Of a DNA stretch of 59,903 nt, positions 46,552 through 54,156 are shown piece after piece. Below the pieces are notes generated by a model, which saw only the letters and a program-made list of their open reading frames with translations, did not search any database and was not told the origin of the DNA. The DNA is taken from contig QQRY01000021.1 in NCBI GenBank assembly GCA_003602575.1, positions 1 through 59,903 of the forward strand. Reading direction: 5' to 3'. The translations under genes were made by a program, and so were the position numbers. The DNA is from Candidatus Poseidoniales archaeon. GTDB lineage: Archaea > Thermoplasmatota > Poseidoniia > Poseidoniales > Poseidoniaceae. How positions within the stretch are numbered: the stretch's first letter is position 1; every line of letters begins with the position of its first letter.

Positions 46552-46688
46552 CGGTCGTATAACTTCTTCATGAACTGTCGCATATAACCATAATATGATA
46601 ATAATGAAATTCGACGGTTTTTTTGAGCATTCTACGGAAAGGTGTTATGATAGGACGACCCTTGGGTTGAATCTGCGGGGGGTTGAGA

Positions 46689-47855
46689 ATGCCAGTTAAA
46701 CTAGGTCCAGCCGGTATTCCTTTATCATGTAAAGGAAGAACGATTGTCGAAGGAATGGACGATATTATTTCTCTTGGATTAGAGACTATGGAAGTTCAAA
46801 CAGTACGAATGATTGCCCCTCAACATTTTGAACAATACTGGCAAGCAGGAGTTTTGGCTAATAAGACCAACTTTGAAATGAATATTCATGGACCTTATTA
46901 CTCAGAACTATTAGGAAATAAAGTAGAGAGAGGACGCTCTCTGACCAAAATTGAAGCCACTCTACAAGCTGCCAAAACAATCAATGCAAGACATATTACT
47001 CTTCACGCCGGCCATTATGGCGAGATGGGCCGTGGTCGAGAAGCCAATGAACAACTAGCCAACGTTTTTTCTGGAATCGTCGATAGAGTTGCAGAAATTT
47101 GGCATGATGATGAGGATATTTACCCTGTATTCCCATGGTTAAAGGATGGTACTCCTTCTAAAATTGGAATTGAAACATCGGGCAGACAAGAATTATGGGG
47201 TAGTCTCGAAGAAGTATTGGAAGTTGTAAATCATGTTGAAGGTACTATTCCTGTATTGAATATTGCTCATATTCACTCTAGAGGGCATGGTAGGATGCGT
47301 ACATCTGAGGATTATGGTGAATTATTTGACCAAGTTAGAGAAACTATTGGAACAAAGGAATTCTATTGTCACTTTTCTGGTGTTGAGCATAGGACAGGTA
47401 ATGCGATGCATTATACTCAAATTAAGAAATCTGACTTAAATTTCGAGCCATTGGCAGAATTCATTGTTGAAGATGGTGGTTGGCTAGACATCACTCTGAT
47501 TTCCGACTCCCCGCTTCTTGAACATGATGCTATGTACATGTTACAAAATATTGAGAAGTCACGTCACAAGCAACTGGAACGTAAAGCCCGAGAAGATCGC
47601 AGAAGGGCTCTATCTGCTCAAACTGGTAAATCCTTCGAGGAAATCGCAAACAAAGAAGTGGAACAAGCTAAACTACGCAAAGAAGTTGAAAACAATGAAA
47701 CAGCGCCTGTTGAAGAAACTCCTAAGGTTGAAGAGAAAGTCGAAGAAAAGCCTGTTAAGAAGGGTTCAAAATCTAAGAAAAAGGATGACGAAAAAGACAA
47801 AGACAAAGATGAAGATGTCTTTAATTTCGAAGAAGACGATGATGACTTATTTTGA
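46689..47855 (+). CDS. endonuclease IV-like AP endonuclease with long charged C-terminal tail
   Basis: GPAG, IHGPYY, LHAG, IETSGR, AHIHSR and HFSG metal-ligand motifs. Confidence 0.8.
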   Translation: MPVKLGPAGIPLSCKGRTIVEGMDDIISLGLETMEVQTVRMIAPQHFEQYWQAGVLANKTNFEMNIHGPYYSELLGNKVERGRSLTKIEATLQAAKTINARHITLHAGHYGEMGRGREANEQLANVFSGIVDRVAEIWHDDEDIYPVFPWLKDGTPSKIGIETSGRQELWGSLEEVLEVVNHVEGTIPVLNIAHIHSRGHGRMRTSEDYGELFDQVRETIGTKEFYCHFSGVEHRTGNAMHYTQIKKSDLNFEPLAEFIVEDGGWLDITLISDSPLLEHDAMYMLQNIEKSRHKQLERKAREDRRRALSAQTGKSFEEIANKEVEQAKLRKEVENNETAPVEETPKVEEKVEEKPVKKGSKSKKKDDEKDKDKDEDVFNFEEDDDDLF

Positions 47856-47951: not shown

Positions 47952-48950
47952 ATGGCACATATTGCGATTTTGGGATTAGGCAACTGGGGGACTGCGGTAG
48001 CTAGAATGTGGTTACTTGATGGCCATAATGTGAAAGGTTGGACTATCGAACAAGAAGTTTATGAGTCGATAACAATGGATCAGGTGAATAAGAAGTATTT
48101 ACCCGAACATTCAGTTGAAGGTCTTGAGGTCACAATGCATATCAATGAAGCTCTTCAAGGAGTGGAAATTGTTGTTCTTGCTGTACCTTCATCAGTCATA
48201 TTAGATGTGTTCGATGATGTATTGCCTCACTTAAGACCTGGGCACGTAATAATCGATTTAGCAAAAGGTCTCGCTCCTGGGAAGAGATTAATTTCTGAAG
48301 CGATTCATAATAAATTGAAAGAGGCAAACATGAATAATCCTCTTGCTGTTGTTACCGGACCAACTATCGCTCCTGAAGCAGCAAGCGGGGTCATGACTAC
48401 TGCTTTAGTCGCTAGTGAAGATGAATCTGTTGCCCAGAAATTGGCTAAAACTCTAACCACTCAAACCTTTATTCTCCATCCTGCCTCAGACCCTGCGGGT
48501 GCAGAATTATGGGGGGCATTCAAAAATGTCGTTGCTTTAACATGTGGATTGGTTGATGGTTTGAAAATTAATGGGACTCTTGGTGGTGATAATTTGAAAG
48601 CTGCTATTTTCATGGCTGGATTCAAAGAAGGTTGTATCCTATTGCCCCTTCTAGGGGCAAAAGCCGAGGTTGCATTTGGACCGGCCGGACTTGGAGATCT
48701 TTACGTGACAGCAACTTCACCATATGGAAGAAATAGAACCATGGGTGAGAAGTTAGGCACGGGATTAACATTAGAACAAGCATTAGAAGAAATGCACATG
48801 GTTGCTGAAGGAGTTAGAGCGGCTAGAATGTTTATTCGACGTGCAGAGGATGAAAATATCAATACTCCATTCACTAAAGCAATCAATACCTTACTCGATG
48901 GGGACATCGATGCTGAAGAGTGTTGTAGAAGAATTGTCGCCCTAAACTAG
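47952..48950 (+). CDS. gpsA: NAD(P)H-dependent glycerol-3-phosphate dehydrogenase
   Basis: GLGNWGTA, LAKG, GPTIA, GAFKNVVA, GLGDLYVT, GRN, AEG motifs. Confidence 0.9.
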   Translation: MAHIAILGLGNWGTAVARMWLLDGHNVKGWTIEQEVYESITMDQVNKKYLPEHSVEGLEVTMHINEALQGVEIVVLAVPSSVILDVFDDVLPHLRPGHVIIDLAKGLAPGKRLISEAIHNKLKEANMNNPLAVVTGPTIAPEAASGVMTTALVASEDESVAQKLAKTLTTQTFILHPASDPAGAELWGAFKNVVALTCGLVDGLKINGTLGGDNLKAAIFMAGFKEGCILLPLLGAKAEVAFGPAGLGDLYVTATSPYGRNRTMGEKLGTGLTLEQALEEMHMVAEGVRAARMFIRRAEDENINTPFTKAINTLLDGDIDAEECCRRIVALN

Positions 48951-49219: not shown

Positions 49220-50161
49220 TCATTCTTCTTCCTTTTTGGAGTACATTTCTACAGCCATAGAAGGCGGTAAAATAACACTCCACCACTTAGGTCTCTTCAC
49301 GTCTCCTTCTTCAGTTACAAAGGAGCGGATTAGCATAGAGATTAGATCTATTATCACTACGACTACAAAGACTACAATTAGTAAGGCAAATGCCTTATTG
49401 TAATCAAATGGTGGATTGATGTAATTATCGATATACATACCGATTCCTCCAGCACCTACAAGACCTAAAACCGCTCCATGTCTTACATTATACTCGAACA
49501 TGAATAATAATTGACTAAGAAGGTGATTACTAGACTCTGGAATTACTACATGGAATAATTGTTCAGAATGTGTCAAACCCATTGCCAAACCAGACTCTAA
49601 CGGCGCGTTATGAACTCCTTCCATGGCCTCATACTGTAGTTTTCCTAAGTATCCAATAGTGTACAAAGTCATGGCTAAAATACCAGGTAATGGCCCAAAA
49701 CCGAGGGCGATTGCAAATAGTAAAGCCCAAATTATACTGGGTAGACTTCGTAGTCCAGCAAGTAAAACTCTTGCAGGAATTGCAATTGGCAGTGGAGCCA
49801 TATTATTTGCTGCAAAAGAGGCAATTGGAATTGAAAAGAAAAATCCTATCAAAGTTGCAACGAATGCCATTTTTATAGTAATTACCATTCCTGTCCAAGC
49901 CTTAGAACAGAATAATTCGATATTTTCATTACATACATCTCCATTGGGTTTGTGTAATGAACCATCTGCCCAAACCTCTGCCTCTAAAACCGACCAATCT
50001 GGAGGCAAGAGGTCTTCACTGAAGAATATCTTTAACTTTTCAGGTGCACCTTCTATTTGACCCCAATCATCGACTAAATCATCTAGAGATAACCAAGCTA
50101 GAAGTATTAAGAAAATACCAACAAAAAATAATTTCTTATTGATTGGAATCACCTTCCTCAA
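49220..50161 (-). CDS. PhnE-family ABC transporter permease
   Basis: RSLPSIIWAL, GKLQYEAME, FEYNVRHGAVLGLVGAGGIG. Confidence 0.88.
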   Translation of the reverse strand: MRKVIPINKKLFFVGIFLILLAWLSLDDLVDDWGQIEGAPEKLKIFFSEDLLPPDWSVLEAEVWADGSLHKPNGDVCNENIELFCSKAWTGMVITIKMAFVATLIGFFFSIPIASFAANNMAPLPIAIPARVLLAGLRSLPSIIWALLFAIALGFGPLPGILAMTLYTIGYLGKLQYEAMEGVHNAPLESGLAMGLTHSEQLFHVVIPESSNHLLSQLLFMFEYNVRHGAVLGLVGAGGIGMYIDNYINPPFDYNKAFALLIVVFVVVVIIDLISMLIRSFVTEEGDVKRPKWWSVILPPSMAVEMYSKKEEE

Positions 50162-50813
50162 TCAAATTATCATCAATGATTCGCCAAATTCTATCAGCGA
50201 GCTCAATCGCTCTTTCTTCATGGTGTTCGATTAAGATTAAGGTCGCTCCAATTTCGTCAACGATCTCTTTAGTAGCGGCAATTATAGAATTTACATTCTC
50301 TTTATCGAGTTCTCCTAAGAATTCATCTGCAAGGATGAGTTTAGGCCTTTGGACAAGTGTTCTTGCAATAGCAACACGTCTCTGTTGACCTCCAGAAAGA
50401 ATTCTAACCGGTTCATCTGCAATATCTAGAATTTTTAATGCCCTCATGGCATTATCCATATCTTGTTTGAGTTTCTTATCTAGTGGAAACCAGAATGGAA
50501 ACCACCTAGATCTTCTTGTTCTTGCCCCTAATGCGACATTACTTCGTACTGTAGAGTGCCTTACTAAACCAAGTCTCTGGGGTATGTAACCAATTCCACC
50601 TCTTTTGGGATAGTTATGATATATCTCCCCAGATAGAGGTCGAATTAAACCTGCTATAGTCCTCATCAAAGTAGTCTTTCCAATTCCAGATGAACCCAAA
50701 ATTGCAATCGTATCTCCCGGATAAATGGTTTTGTTAATATCTGATACCAATGGTTTGTCATAGCCAACAGATAGACCTCTAAGAGTTACACTCTCAGGGT
50801 CTATCTGCTGCAT
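50136..50813 (-). CDS. PhnC-family ABC transporter ATPase
   Basis: GSSGIGKTT, LSGGQQRRVAIAR, ILADE; start refined to MQQID after a GGTGGTGAG RBS. Confidence 0.88.
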   Translation of the reverse strand: MQQIDPESVTLRGLSVGYDKPLVSDINKTIYPGDTIAILGSSGIGKTTLMRTIAGLIRPLSGEIYHNYPKRGGIGYIPQRLGLVRHSTVRSNVALGARTRRSRWFPFWFPLDKKLKQDMDNAMRALKILDIADEPVRILSGGQQRRVAIARTLVQRPKLILADEFLGELDKENVNSIIAATKEIVDEIGATLILIEHHEERAIELADRIWRIIDDNLIEEGDSNQ

Positions 50814-50901
50814 CTCACCACCACCTCGAGAGGGGGATTTTTCAACTACCAAGTAACCATCACCATGTGCCCGTAGAATTATTCTATTTAGAGCAAGTAG
50901 G

Positions 50902-53109
50902 TCATTCTTGTTCAGAAGTTTCAGCATCTGTGATGCCGTACTTATCTGATGAATGGTAATATTCTGAAAGACCTGGCACAGATGCTAGAAGATCAGAATA
51001 ACTTGCCAAATGATTTTGGCTATTTCCTGCTTTCAATCCATAACCCTTCGAAGTAACAGAAGATAGAATCTCTCCACCACATTGGTTCATAGGAATATCA
51101 GCAACTTGGTGAGTCACTGTATTGTAACATCCTGTGTAATTTTGACCTCCCATAGGATAATTGTCAACCCACATTTCATCGTTCCAACTCAACATTGCAT
51201 TCAAAATTGCATTACGTGTGTGGATATCTAACTTTTCAGGGTTATACATTACAGGGTGGCTTGGAGATTGTCCAAATGATGGTAGTTGGACATATTGGTC
51301 CATTGGAAGACACCAAGCTTCATTCTCAGAAGCATTATCATCGCCACAGTATTTTTCAACTGTACTGAAATCGTCTCCCTTAGCAAAAGCAACATCTCCA
51401 TATCCTTCACTCAAACACTCAATAGCACCACTATATCCCGAATATAGGGCTCCAGAATCAGGAATTGATGCTGGATTTCCATTACTTGCCGAGCCATCGA
51501 AATGGTTGTCAATAGTCGTTCTAAGTGAGTTTACATCTGTATTATCTCCTAGAGGAGTAACATATCCGTTCTTAATTAGATACCCCATTGGCATCAACAT
51601 TCCAGCAGATTTTAGCCATCCGGTGTGACAAGAGGTCTTTCCTGCCATTAATGCGAACGGATCTGTTGAGTCATCTCCATCCAAGTGAGCATTAGCGATA
51701 TCTGAACCGTTTAGAACCCATGCTGAAGCATTGTAGTGTGTCGCTCCTTCTGCGGTTGTGGTTTCAACAGCTAATACAGAAAGTCCGTATTGTTTCCATC
51801 CAATCCATGCTGGTCCACCTTCCATGAATCCAATATCTGCATTTCCAAATCTCAATGCTTGGATAATCATTCCTTCGGATGAAACATCATACAAGTTAAC
51901 ATTCACTCCAAGGTCTGATGCAAGTCTATCAGCCATTCCTTGAGCATCAGCATTTGCACTTGCGTCATCTGCTAAATAATATGCAACATTAATCGTAGAT
52001 TTTACTGCAGCAGTTTCTGAACCATTTGTGAAAGCATTTCCATACTTACTGGAAATACCTGGGATGTTTTGAAGCGCTGCTCCATATGTTCCCAAATGTG
52101 TTTCAGCATCGGTAACAATCATAGCATCAGTACCTAGAACATTGTTTAAAATTTCTAGGCCATTGGTATCATCTTTCATTGCTACAAGTGCATCTTGAAT
52201 CAAGGTCACTTTGTCTGCTGCGAGGACATCACTGTTATACATGACAGAGTGACTAGGAGATGATCCAAATTTCGGTAAAGCAACATATTGACTCATATCC
52301 AAACACCATGCTTGATTCAAGGTTGCATCCTCATTATCACAATATGAAGCAACTGTCGAATCCTTAGCAAACGCTACATCTCCATATCCAGTACTCAAAC
52401 ATTCAACGGCTCCACTATATCCTGAGTACAATGCGCCACTTTCTGGAATAGATGCTGGATTTCCAGCACCTGTACTTCCATCAAAGTAGTAATTAATTGT
52501 AGTTCGTAAAGTTTCAGTATCAGACATGTCTCCTTGAACATTGACATATCCGTTACCAATCATGTAACCCATAGGCATCAACATTCCTGCTGATTTTAGC
52601 CATCCAGTGTGACAAGATGTTTTTCCAGCAAGTAGAGTGAAAGGATCGGTTGAATCATCATTGTCTAGATGAGCTGTTGCCATTTCTGAATCTGCTTTGA
52701 CCCAAGCATGTGCATCATAATAGGCACGCCCATCGCTTTTTGTGTCAGCAGCCATAACGTCTAGATCATATGCATTCCAGCCAACCCAAGCAGGTCCACC
52801 ATCAATATTCATTGCAATATCTGCGTTTCCAAATCTAAGTGCTTCCATAGCGATTCCTGAACTTCCAACATCATATAATGAAACATCCATATCTAACTTA
52901 TCACAGAGATAATCTGCAATCTGTTGAGGATTTGATAGATCTGTATCTGTCAAATCTTCTTTTATTTCATATGCTATTTTTAATTCATCTCCGCTACAAT
53001 TATCTGTAGAAGATGTAGAATCATCATCACTACCAATACAACCTGCCATAGCAGTAGTCACCATTAGTAGTATCATTAGGCTCGATTTCGCAATTTTTGT
53101 TTCCAACAT
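50902..53109 (-). CDS. bilobed transferrin-like (PhnD-fold) substrate-binding lipoprotein
   Basis: Lipobox AMAGC; two lobes about 328 aa apart, each with GKTSCHTGWLKSAG, YSGYSGAxECL..GYGDVAFAK and SPSH; ATG 53109 follows a GAGTGA RBS. Confidence 0.85.
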   Translation of the reverse strand: MLETKIAKSSLMILLMVTTAMAGCIGSDDDSTSSTDNCSGDELKIAYEIKEDLTDTDLSNPQQIADYLCDKLDMDVSLYDVGSSGIAMEALRFGNADIAMNIDGGPAWVGWNAYDLDVMAADTKSDGRAYYDAHAWVKADSEMATAHLDNDDSTDPFTLLAGKTSCHTGWLKSAGMLMPMGYMIGNGYVNVQGDMSDTETLRTTINYYFDGSTGAGNPASIPESGALYSGYSGAVECLSTGYGDVAFAKDSTVASYCDNEDATLNQAWCLDMSQYVALPKFGSSPSHSVMYNSDVLAADKVTLIQDALVAMKDDTNGLEILNNVLGTDAMIVTDAETHLGTYGAALQNIPGISSKYGNAFTNGSETAAVKSTINVAYYLADDASANADAQGMADRLASDLGVNVNLYDVSSEGMIIQALRFGNADIGFMEGGPAWIGWKQYGLSVLAVETTTAEGATHYNASAWVLNGSDIANAHLDGDDSTDPFALMAGKTSCHTGWLKSAGMLMPMGYLIKNGYVTPLGDNTDVNSLRTTIDNHFDGSASNGNPASIPDSGALYSGYSGAIECLSEGYGDVAFAKGDDFSTVEKYCGDDNASENEAWCLPMDQYVQLPSFGQSPSHPVMYNPEKLDIHTRNAILNAMLSWNDEMWVDNYPMGGQNYTGCYNTVTHQVADIPMNQCGGEILSSVTSKGYGLKAGNSQNHLASYSDLLASVPGLSEYYHSSDKYGITDAETSEQE

Positions 53110-53120
53110 TTTTATCACTC

Positions 53121-53138
53121 TTTTAGGGAGGCCGAAAA
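53121..53138. promoter_or_regulatory. palindromic operator A, TTTTAGG-N4-CCGAAAA (DtxR/SirR-like)
   Basis: Inverted repeat with one mismatch, at the expected transcription start of the transferrin-like gene. Confidence 0.6.
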
Positions 53139-53155
53139 GTAACTCATATATATTA

Positions 53156-53171
53156 TTTAGGTTTCCCTAAA
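53156..53171. promoter_or_regulatory. palindromic operator B, TTTAGG-TTTC-CCTAAA (DtxR/SirR-like)
   Basis: Perfect 6-4-6 inverted repeat directly upstream of a TATA-like TAATATATATG on the minus strand. Confidence 0.7.
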
Positions 53172-53190
53172 AAAGCAAAATAGTCGACTT

Positions 53191-54111
53191 TCACTCTACT
53201 TTGACTTGACTTATGCCTTTTACAATCTGATTTAGATACCGAACTTCTATTTCTAAATTACAAGCCGAACTACAAATATCATGACCGTTTTCATAAACAG
53301 AAATTATCTCATCATGATTCCAAACGCTTTCATTATCTGATGAGATAAAACAGTGCGCTTCCTTTGTCAAATTTTCATTACTTATTGCTGAAATATCGAT
53401 ATCTCCAATAGAGGAAATTATGAAAGAAATAAACCTTGAATCATCATCGGAATTATAGTAACTTAGAAATTGAATCTTGTAAAATATGTTACTATCATTA
53501 ACGATGTAAGTAATTTCCTTTGGGATTACTCGATGAACTGAAATATCATAATCATACCATTCTAACCTAGAATCTGAGGTTTCGGTAGGTTCTCCTTCAG
53601 GAATTGAATCCACGTTTTGAAACTCTTCCTCAGTAGTATATCCCAAAACATTCTCCCCAAGTATGATGTCTGTCTTTGAAAAACTAATACTATAATTACT
53701 ATCATTGGTCTGTTGCATATCTGAGAAACTTAAGAGAATAAAATCATCTGAATCTGAATTAACTTCAATGGTAAAGCTATTTCCGTCTGAATTAAGTTTG
53801 GTTTGAATTAGCCCATTATGGGAAATGCTAGAGGTTAGCCCACTCTTTGTACAATCATAGCGATTATTGTCACCTATGAGAGTCATTGTTAATTTAGACC
53901 AGTCAAGATTATCTTCACCAGAAGAAAAGGAAAATTGCAATAATGGATCATTGGATTGGTTTGAAACATTACTATTGTAATCCTCTACCAGAATTTCATT
54001 CTCTGTAGTTAATTCTGCTGAATAAGATGTAACAAGAAAATACCATCCCACTGCCCCGATTACTAAAACAATTAGAACTCCGGCCAAAAGTCGCTTTAAC
54101 CAATTTGACAT
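53191..54111 (-). CDS. membrane-anchored protein with HmuY-like heme-binding domain
   Basis: N-terminal TM; EWYDYDISVHRVIPKEITYIV...YKIQFLSYY...SRFISF resembles the HmuY C-terminal motif; start refined to MSNWL. Confidence 0.65.
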   Translation of the reverse strand: MSNWLKRLLAGVLIVLVIGAVGWYFLVTSYSAELTTENEILVEDYNSNVSNQSNDPLLQFSFSSGEDNLDWSKLTMTLIGDNNRYDCTKSGLTSSISHNGLIQTKLNSDGNSFTIEVNSDSDDFILLSFSDMQQTNDSNYSISFSKTDIILGENVLGYTTEEEFQNVDSIPEGEPTETSDSRLEWYDYDISVHRVIPKEITYIVNDSNIFYKIQFLSYYNSDDDSRFISFIISSIGDIDISAISNENLTKEAHCFISSDNESVWNHDEIISVYENGHDICSSACNLEIEVRYLNQIVKGISQVKVE

Positions 54112-54140
54112 GGTGTTCGCTCCCTTCAATCAAGTATAAA

Positions 54141-54156
54141 CTTTGGTTGCCCTAAA
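54141..54156. promoter_or_regulatory. palindromic operator C (minus strand TTTAGG-GCAA-CCAAAG) abutting a TTTATA box
   Basis: Same motif and position relative to the TATA element as operator B; TATA about 24 nt upstream of ATG 54111. Confidence 0.6.

Follow-up and report, generated by a model that had tools for sequence, protein, structure and literature searches.

We report that a 59,903-nucleotide stretch of DNA from a Candidatus Poseidoniales archaeon (assembly GCA_003602575.1, contig QQRY01000021.1, positions 1 to 59,903 of the forward strand; the window hereafter) encodes a two-lobed, transferrin-like lipoprotein, which is probably the iron-repressed, Fe3+-binding substrate-binding protein (SBP) of an ATP-binding cassette (ABC) importer in this Marine Group II (MGII) archaeon. 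Judged by its sequence, the protein is a genuine member of the transferrin family. This kinship, a full set of iron-binding residues and an iron-repressor DNA site in front of the gene together make iron the cargo that it most likely captures. The pair of IdeR/DtxR-type operators in the promoter is independent support for iron, and it is new beside an earlier sequence-only reading of the window, which had proposed a Fe3+-carbonate-binding SBP with the bilobed architecture of animal transferrin. The gene, its protein domains and its promoter elements are as follows.

50902..53118, minus strand: SBP gene, encoding the two-lobed transferrin-like lipoprotein; open reading frame (ORF) of 738 aa from GTG, or 735 aa from the ATG at 53109.
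53038..53118, minus strand: signal peptide and lipobox (TAMAGC, Cys27), residues checked by script.
52024..52989, minus strand: lobe 1, residues 44-365, with D106, Y134, T171, K175, Y234, H290 and the Cys pair C169/C240.
50938..51999, minus strand: lobe 2, residues 374-727, with E433, Y462, T499, K503, Y562, H621 and the Cys pair C497/C568.
53157..53170, no strand assigned: operator 1, exact TTAGG-N4-CCTAA, upstream of the TATA-like box.
53146..53156, minus strand: putative TATA-like box, A/T-rich, between the operators, read from the sequence.
53123..53136, no strand assigned: operator 2, which differs from the palindrome at one position (gene-strand reading TTCGG…CCTAA) and stops 5 nt short of the GTG and 13 nt short of the ATG.

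The ATG at 53109 is the likelier start codon, since the closest relatives (P0003-P0005) have the 735-aa form. Script checks bore out the architecture described in the sequence-only reading. The lipobox TAMAGC contains Cys27, and all 17 aligned relatives keep its G26 and C27. The segments 46-359 and 376-721 are identical at 170 of 311 aligned positions (55%), with an offset of about 328 aa, as expected of two homologous lobes 328 aa apart, and every residue named in either lobe, from D106 to H290 and from E433 to H621, is present. Lobe 2 also contains a Cys-containing insert near residues 650-690.

The family to which the protein belongs was assessed with profile and sequence searches. The Pfam Transferrin model (PF00405) matches the whole protein with 107.7 bits (E 8.9e-31; cut-off 20.3), and it matches lobe 1 (63.0 bits, E 3.6e-17) and lobe 2 (54.9 bits, E 1e-14) when they are scanned singly, well past anything that chance would give. 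The per-lobe comparison of Transferrin with Phosphonate-bd that had been suggested as a check gave matches to both models, with Transferrin ranking first in each lobe; for the whole protein these were the only two Pfam matches at E≤1, SBP_bac_6, SBP_bac_11 and SBP_bac_1 not being found. In a phmmer search of PDB sequences 94 entries were matched, and the 60 listed are all of the transferrin family (lactoferrins, transferrins, ovotransferrins, melanotransferrin and inhibitor of carbonic anhydrase), with bovine lactoferrin 1blf at the top (E 7.6e-23). Lobe 1 searched by phmmer against 1.84 billion representatives returned only 292 matches at E≤1e-3, which indicates that the large PhnD family is mostly beyond the reach of such a search and that transferrins are within it. 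Outside the archaea, the closest matches were eukaryotic transferrins with multiple lobes, those of ichthyosporeans among them.

The names under which relatives are deposited reflect both families. As the sequence-only reading had anticipated in expecting annotation as PhnD, they are called 'ABC-type phosphate/phosphonate transport system substrate-binding protein' or 'PhnD/SsuA/transferrin family substrate-binding protein', and once 'melanoma-associated antigen p97'. The neighbours in the ESM Atlas are Thermoplasmatota clusters auto-named 'Transferrin-like domain-containing protein'; automatic annotation thus already recognises the domain. The literature searched contained no paper on an archaeal transferrin-like SBP, and supplementary tables could hold gene-level data on MGII phnD.

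The predicted ligand site was examined by HMMER alignment to 1blf, in which NIDGG/FMEGG corresponds to LDGG, THY to THYY, SCHTGWLKSAG to SCHTGLGRSAG and YSGYSGA to YFGYSGAF, lactoferrin positions that we take to be the metal and anion ligands. The Asp/Tyr/Tyr/His positions are occupied by D106/Y134/Y234/H290 in lobe 1 and E433/Y462/Y562/H621 in lobe 2, and the anion-site positions by T171/T499 and by Lys (K175/K503) in place of Arg. Lys at this position is also found in eukaryotic lobes, namely Ciona d1, Branchiostoma and ichthyosporeans. The Cys pairs C169/C240 and C497/C568 stand around the anion loop and the second Tyr and are predicted to form disulfides; the pair is present in archaeal and eukaryotic lobes and is Ala/Ala in PhnD outgroups.

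Conservation of the site was followed in 17 relatives with 55-81% identity and in loci from a scan in which each prokaryotic species is represented by a single genome and 387 stretches encode a relative; the best 80 loci were analysed, and 75 of them had enough upstream sequence. Among the 17 relatives the D/Y/T/K/Y/H set of lobe 1 is invariant (17/17), and in lobe 2 five of the six positions are invariant, the consensus at position 433 being Asp and the residue here Glu. This replacement in lobe 2 is confined to relatives at ≥72% identity. The D-Y-T-K-Y-H set is complete in all lobes at 72 of the 75 loci, and a table of 147 lobes places the same set, often with Lys instead of Arg, in transferrin lobes of ichthyosporeans, Ciona, Branchiostoma and Bryopsis. 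The transferrin-type ligand set that the sequence-only reading had recognised is therefore a conserved one, common to archaeal and eukaryotic lobes. In divergent bilobal MGII paralogues (P0123, P0124, P0128, P0130 and P0133) several or all six positions are lost, and true PhnD sequences of the same phylum have none of D106, Y134 and K175 and no Cys pair; the set thus follows function, not fold. Lobe number and content vary within the family. At loci L081 and L082, neither of which has an operator, lobe 2 reads ESNDDD; a three-lobed form (P0015, 1156 aa) has all ligands in every lobe; and monolobal forms of 331-409 aa also occur (P0125, P0136).

We next turn to the promoter. The motif upstream of the gene is identical to the 14-bp IdeR/DtxR consensus TTAGGNNNNCCTAA and is therefore a predicted operator. 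This 14-bp sequence, TTAGGNNNNCCTAA, was proposed as the redefined IdeR/DtxR target by Marcos-Torres et al. 2021 (PMC8464063), in whose work each IdeR monomer is shown to read one CCTAA. At related loci the palindrome TTAGG-N4-CCTAA likewise stands upstream, usually twice and on both sides of a TATA-like box, with ≥1 exact site in 68 of the 75 loci and ≥2 sites in 53. No operator was found at L081 and L082, where the ligands of lobe 2 are lost, nor at L068 and L072, where ABC genes are not adjacent. All 7 exact sites in four other Poseidoniales genomes lie just upstream of the SBP gene; a fifth genome has 0, and the reversed-pattern control gave 1-6 sites per genome. The genome of the window holds 3 exact sites, and five shuffled genomes held 4, 0, 0, 1 and 0. 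Apart from the site at the SBP gene, the exact sites (G000:C39:27817 and G000:C53:10654; L102, L103) are located in the divergent promoter of the sufCBD and NifU-like genes and ahead of hemA-hemCD.

A candidate repressor is encoded in the same genome. It has a single DtxR-family protein (G000:C22), with DNA-binding and metal-binding parts (Fe_dep_repress, Fe_dep_repr_C) and a FeoA/SH3-like part, and the family was found in 60 of 61 sampled Poseidoniales genomes. Elsewhere in the order, the complete-looking genome G027 has a second, short DtxR-family gene (G027:C1:655653-655841) beside sufC (654054-654782), and several genomes of its family carry two DtxR-family matches. When HemA of this genome served as the protein query, just 3 of 15 further Poseidoniales genomes gave a similar protein; the distribution of heme biosynthesis across the order may be uneven.

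The gene is accompanied by those of an ABC transporter, listed below.

50136..50927, minus strand: ABC ATPase, for which PhnC is the best NCBIfam model at a score under its cut-off (128.5 vs 266.1).
49220..50161, minus strand: ABC permease of the PhnE type (TIGR01097, 219.7 bits vs a cut-off of 216.7).

The reading frames of SBP, ATPase and permease overlap in the window. Of the 70 related loci with room for it, 66 have the ATPase gene immediately after the SBP gene on its strand, and the permease gene is present in 63 of 66. The SBP gene is thus the first gene of a conserved SBP-ATPase-permease operon, with partners of the PhnC/PhnE kind that a PhnD-type SBP would have, which upholds on the genomic side the proposed role as an ABC substrate-binding protein. 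RNA-library contigs from three marine metatranscriptome studies extend over close relatives of the SBP gene and hint at its expression, with DNA carry-over a possible source; one of them, 2034 nt long, spans 51077-53102 and may likewise be carried-over DNA. None of the RNA-library contigs compared bridges 53120-53208, a weak hint that transcripts start near the ATG.

Several observations weigh against iron as the cargo, and they are taken here with the alternatives on which they bear. Fe3+ binding by this protein is itself a prediction from sequence. The textbook Arg of the anion site is replaced by Lys, and in lobe 2 the textbook Asp is replaced by Glu. At the promoter level, the exact suf site recurs in a single one of the 15 other genomes (G087, of the other family), two further genomes having a version with 2 mismatches, and the 3 hemA loci in the other genomes are all without an exact operator. 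Sites with ≤1 mismatch number 34 genome-wide vs 45-63 in shuffled genomes, so that there is no enrichment; for this reason only exact sites and sites placed in promoters were used.

The match to Phosphonate-bd (PF12974) is also strong, at 92.2 bits for the whole protein, and the permease exceeds the cut-off of the NCBI PhnE equivalog model, and the ATPase fits PhnC better than any other NCBIfam model. The ABC importers known to carry Fe3+ have permeases of the FbpB/FutB type, and we know of no precedent for a PhnE-type channel that carries iron. The fold is shared as well. The structure prediction and superposition advised in the sequence-only reading yielded a confident AlphaFold2 model of lobe 1 (predicted local distance difference test 88.8, predicted template modelling score 0.87) that superposes well on human transferrin 3qyt (Z 23.3, 27% identity), with HtxB (Z 23.1, 15%) and PtxB (Z 23.0, 18%) tied with it. 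Foldseek E-values are all about 1e-14 for transferrin, PtxB, HtxB and ArrX alike, and a search with the predicted fold cannot separate these families. These observations would fit a PhnD-type SBP for phosphonate, phosphite or a related phosphorus oxyanion, in which the transferrin-like residues are an inherited scaffold, as would Tully 2019 (PMC6336850), which places 'transport of phosphonates' within the MGII core genome. The operon described here is presumably what the literature counts as that trait.

We nevertheless regard a phosphorus ligand as unlikely. The protein scores 34.5 bits vs a cut-off of 261.1 with the NCBIfam PhnD equivalog (TIGR03431) and 65.3 vs 112.05 with its parent model (TIGR01098), far under both thresholds. 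The residues missing from the same-phylum PhnD and shed by the diverging paralogues are more than a scaffold, the operator is of the IdeR/DtxR type and not linked to phosphorus, and an acidic, tyrosinate-rich pocket would seem ill suited to an anion alone. The genome (1.97 Mb, 87% complete) yielded no PhnJ, PhnX or PhnA for cleavage of the C-P bond, PhnZ/PhnY and PtxD lying outside the search. A preprint on marine phosphonates reports no phosphonate-consuming archaea among the GORG-Tropics single-cell genomes, MGII making up 80% of the archaea there (10.1101/2020.11.04.368217). An importer of iron would remove the mismatch between a core phosphonate transporter and the lack of phosphonate-consuming archaea.

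The search for other iron uptake systems in the genome found no siderophore-type SBP (Peripla_BP_2), FeoB Gate domain or Nramp; FTR1/EfeU and ZIP lay outside that search. These absences, like those of the phosphonate genes, are provisional because the genome is only 87% complete, which also counts against the case for iron. FeoB_N (PF02421) was discarded as a FeoB marker because it matches generic GTPases in all 14 control genomes, and the Gate domain was used in its place. The only SBP_bac_6 match in the genome adjoins ThiN and is probably thiamine-related.

A further consideration against iron is that a member of the DtxR family may respond to Mn2+ and not to Fe2+, and the sequence of this one is compatible with either. 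The PDB matches of the regulator include Mn sensors of the MntR, SloR and ScaR type; it keeps the ...AC.LEH motif and has Glu at the position aligned with Met10 of DtxR, an MntR-like feature. PDB titles also include transferrins with Ti, Bi, Cr, Yb, Ru and Cu. The ligand could accordingly be another hard metal, such as Mn(III)/Mn(II) or a species of Al, Ti or V, under a regulator responsive to Mn or to another metal, a reading to which we give slightly less credence still than to a phosphorus ligand. Dedicated Mn SBPs have His/His/Glu/Asp sites and belong to a different SBP cluster, and the Asp/Tyr/Tyr/His and anion-site set seen here is that of iron-binding transferrins. The regulator also keeps a Cys that aligns with Cys102 of DtxR/IdeR, and the additional exact operators are at promoters of Fe-S assembly (suf, NifU-like) and heme biosynthesis. 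That the protein binds Fe3+ chiefly as a surface store or buffer, or as an AioX-like sensor without transport, is very improbable: entry titles among the fold matches do describe AioX-type members as sensors (AioX itself of arsenite), and the copies at L068 and L072 keep all the ligands with neither an operator nor ABC genes next to them, but the SBP-ATPase-permease order is kept at nearly all loci with frames that overlap in the window, where no sensor kinase gene adjoins the SBP gene.

For the favoured iron importer, we infer the ligand, the anion, the docking step, repression by iron and the benefit of tandem lobes as follows. Each lobe would bind one Fe3+ taken from seawater by way of an Asp (in lobe 2 a Glu), a pair of tyrosinates and a His. 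The synergistic anion, most probably carbonate, would be bound by Thr171/Thr499, Lys175/Lys503 and the N-terminal end of the helix that follows. The lobe would then close like a Venus flytrap, and the loaded lobe would dock on the PhnE-type permease, import being driven by the PhnC-like ATPase. When iron is replete, the DtxR/IdeR-family repressor would bind the two operators flanking the TATA box and turn the operon off. Tandem lobes may offer more capture sites per anchored molecule.

The origin of the family was addressed with trees computed under LG+G4 and rooted on PhnD, comprising 102 lobes or 63 rows. Their sampling was built around the MGII lobe, with many unnamed rows and no phytotransferrin. 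The phylogeny that the sequence-only reading had called for, with transferrins, phytotransferrins and PhnD, was thus carried out for the first and last of these, and the protein groups with transferrins. Monolobal relatives are found in Poseidoniales, other Thermoplasmatota, Heimdallarchaeia/Kariarchaeaceae and Nitrosopumilus. Those of Heimdallarchaeota/Kariarchaeaceae (P0219, P0358, P0361) and Nitrosopumilus (P0222) read D-Y-T-G-Y-H, with Gly replacing Lys/Arg, lack the Cys pair, and branch between PhnD and the transferrin clade. From the root, the Nitrosopumilus type departs first and the Heimdall type next, followed by a clade of Thermoplasmatota SBPs and all sampled eukaryotic transferrins, which excludes PhnD and has a Shimodaira-Hasegawa-like approximate likelihood ratio test support of 100 in the tree of 102 lobes and 100/100 in that of 63 rows. 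With 63 rows, the eukaryotes branch from within the archaea, at the lower support of 88/89. A clade of Heimdall and eukaryotic sequences was rejected by the approximately unbiased test (p = 0.001), the group having been chosen after the tree was seen. A reciprocal search with the Abeoforma transferrin gave 3 matches only, being limited by the word index.

Both lobes of the archaeal protein fall in one MGII clade (95 with 102 lobes, 100/96 with 63 rows), which indicates that their duplication was independent of those in animals and other eukaryotes. The likeness to the bilobed architecture of animal transferrin, central to the sequence-only reading, accordingly stands for the tandem lobes and falls for the duplication itself, since the N/C-lobe duplication is not shared with animal transferrins and the lobes arose independently in archaea. 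The order of the tree, from PhnD through the Nitrosopumilus and Heimdall types to Thermoplasmatota with eukaryotes, prompts the tentative suggestion, which we hold at somewhat below even chances, that the transferrin iron site, with Asp/Tyr/Tyr/His, a Thr/Lys anion loop and its flanking disulfide, arose in archaeal ABC SBPs and that eukaryotic transferrins derive from a Thermoplasmatota-type SBP by horizontal transfer.

The distribution of the gene agrees with the archaeal source assigned in the sequence-only reading and narrows it to Poseidoniales/Marine Group II. Relatives with named sources belong to metagenome-assembled genomes (MAGs) of Candidatus Poseidoniaceae, Thalassarchaeaceae, Poseidoniales and 'Euryarchaeota', and all but two of the best 80 of the 387 stretches are from archaeal MAGs. 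The two others (L014, L076), filed under bacterial MAGs (Pseudobdellovibrionaceae, Rhodobiaceae), carry the SBP operon with typical MGII neighbours and are probably mis-binned archaeal contigs, not cases of gene transfer. Pfam Transferrin was detected in 171 of 201 sampled Poseidoniales genomes, in 47 of the 61 high-quality ones and in 0 of 14 control genomes; the genome of the window has a single copy of the transferrin-like SBP gene.

The neighbourhood in the window includes one further gene that may belong to the system.

53191..54129, minus strand: possible accessory gene for a 312-aa membrane-anchored protein, with weak Pfam hints (HmuY, E 0.017).

A TTAGG-N4-CCTAA site with one mismatch lies upstream of this gene (54142-54155). 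The protein was matched in 11 of the 80 loci, and in several (L010, L014, L029, L041, L045, L046) its homologue directly follows the permease; it may be an accessory, its membership being uncertain. Further along the window, a 390-aa ORF (46683-47855, plus strand) with a long, highly charged C-terminal tail rich in Lys/Glu/Asp stands beside a 332-aa gene (47952-48950), and the two are conserved in 40 and 51 of the 80 loci, respectively.

MGII archaea are uncultured and are among the most abundant microbes of the surface ocean. If the iron reading is correct, their core 'phosphonate transporter' would be a high-affinity importer of iron under DtxR control and the first PhnE-type ABC channel to serve a metal; should eukaryotic transferrins also derive from such SBPs, it would in addition be a living model of the ancestral transferrin. 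It would also give MGII a candidate for high-affinity iron uptake where the usual systems searched for were not found. Where a survey of prokaryotic SBP transcripts leaves out PF00405 as eukaryotic (PMC11485210), an abundant archaeal protein is lost with it. The origin of transferrin would become testable with tractable prokaryotic proteins.

Among known systems, FbpA, FutA and IdiA ('bacterial transferrin') have the function proposed here, as Fe3+-binding SBPs of ABC importers that use tyrosinate ligands and a synergistic anion. They differ from the archaeal protein in belonging to another SBP family, whose profiles (SBP_bac_6/11/1) it does not match, and in the FbpB/FutB-type rather than PhnE-type permeases that partner FbpA and FutA. 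PhnD, PtxB, HtxB, AioX and ArrX (PF12974) have the same fold (Z about 23) and the same type of ABC partner, but the identity is only 15-18%, and they lack D106, Y134, K175 and the Cys pair; in our trees PhnD-type proteins are the outgroup from which the transferrin-like family stems. This is in line with a review that derives transferrin and phytotransferrin from phosphonate-binding proteins of the periplasm (PMC7676907).

Animal transferrin, lactoferrin, ovotransferrin and melanotransferrin (PF00405) have homologous lobes (Z 21-23, with 24-27% identity across about 265 residues aligned by structure), arranged in tandem, with equivalent Asp/Tyr/Tyr/His positions, Thr and basic-residue positions and the Cys pair, the comparison of disulfides covering two of the many in these proteins. 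Unlike them, secreted and taken up by receptor endocytosis, the archaeal protein would be a lipobox-anchored ABC SBP, with lobes duplicated within archaea, Lys for Arg, and Glu for Asp in lobe 2. The phytotransferrin ISIP2a of diatoms (McQuaid et al. 2018) is likewise a surface protein of a marine microbe and reportedly captures inorganic Fe3+ in a carbonate-dependent, transferrin-like manner; it is likened here by description, not by sequence, and it differs in being eukaryotic, membrane-anchored and endocytosed. The nearest non-archaeal relatives are the ichthyosporean/holozoan transferrins of EukProt (Chromosphaera, Creolimax, Amoebidium, Ichthyophonus, Abeoforma and 'Clim'), at 34-39% identity. 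They have 1-5 lobes and no ABC operon, being eukaryotic proteins, and they share with the archaeal protein the same D-Y-T-K-Y-H set, with Lys, in a clade that is sister to or nested in the SBPs of Thermoplasmatota.

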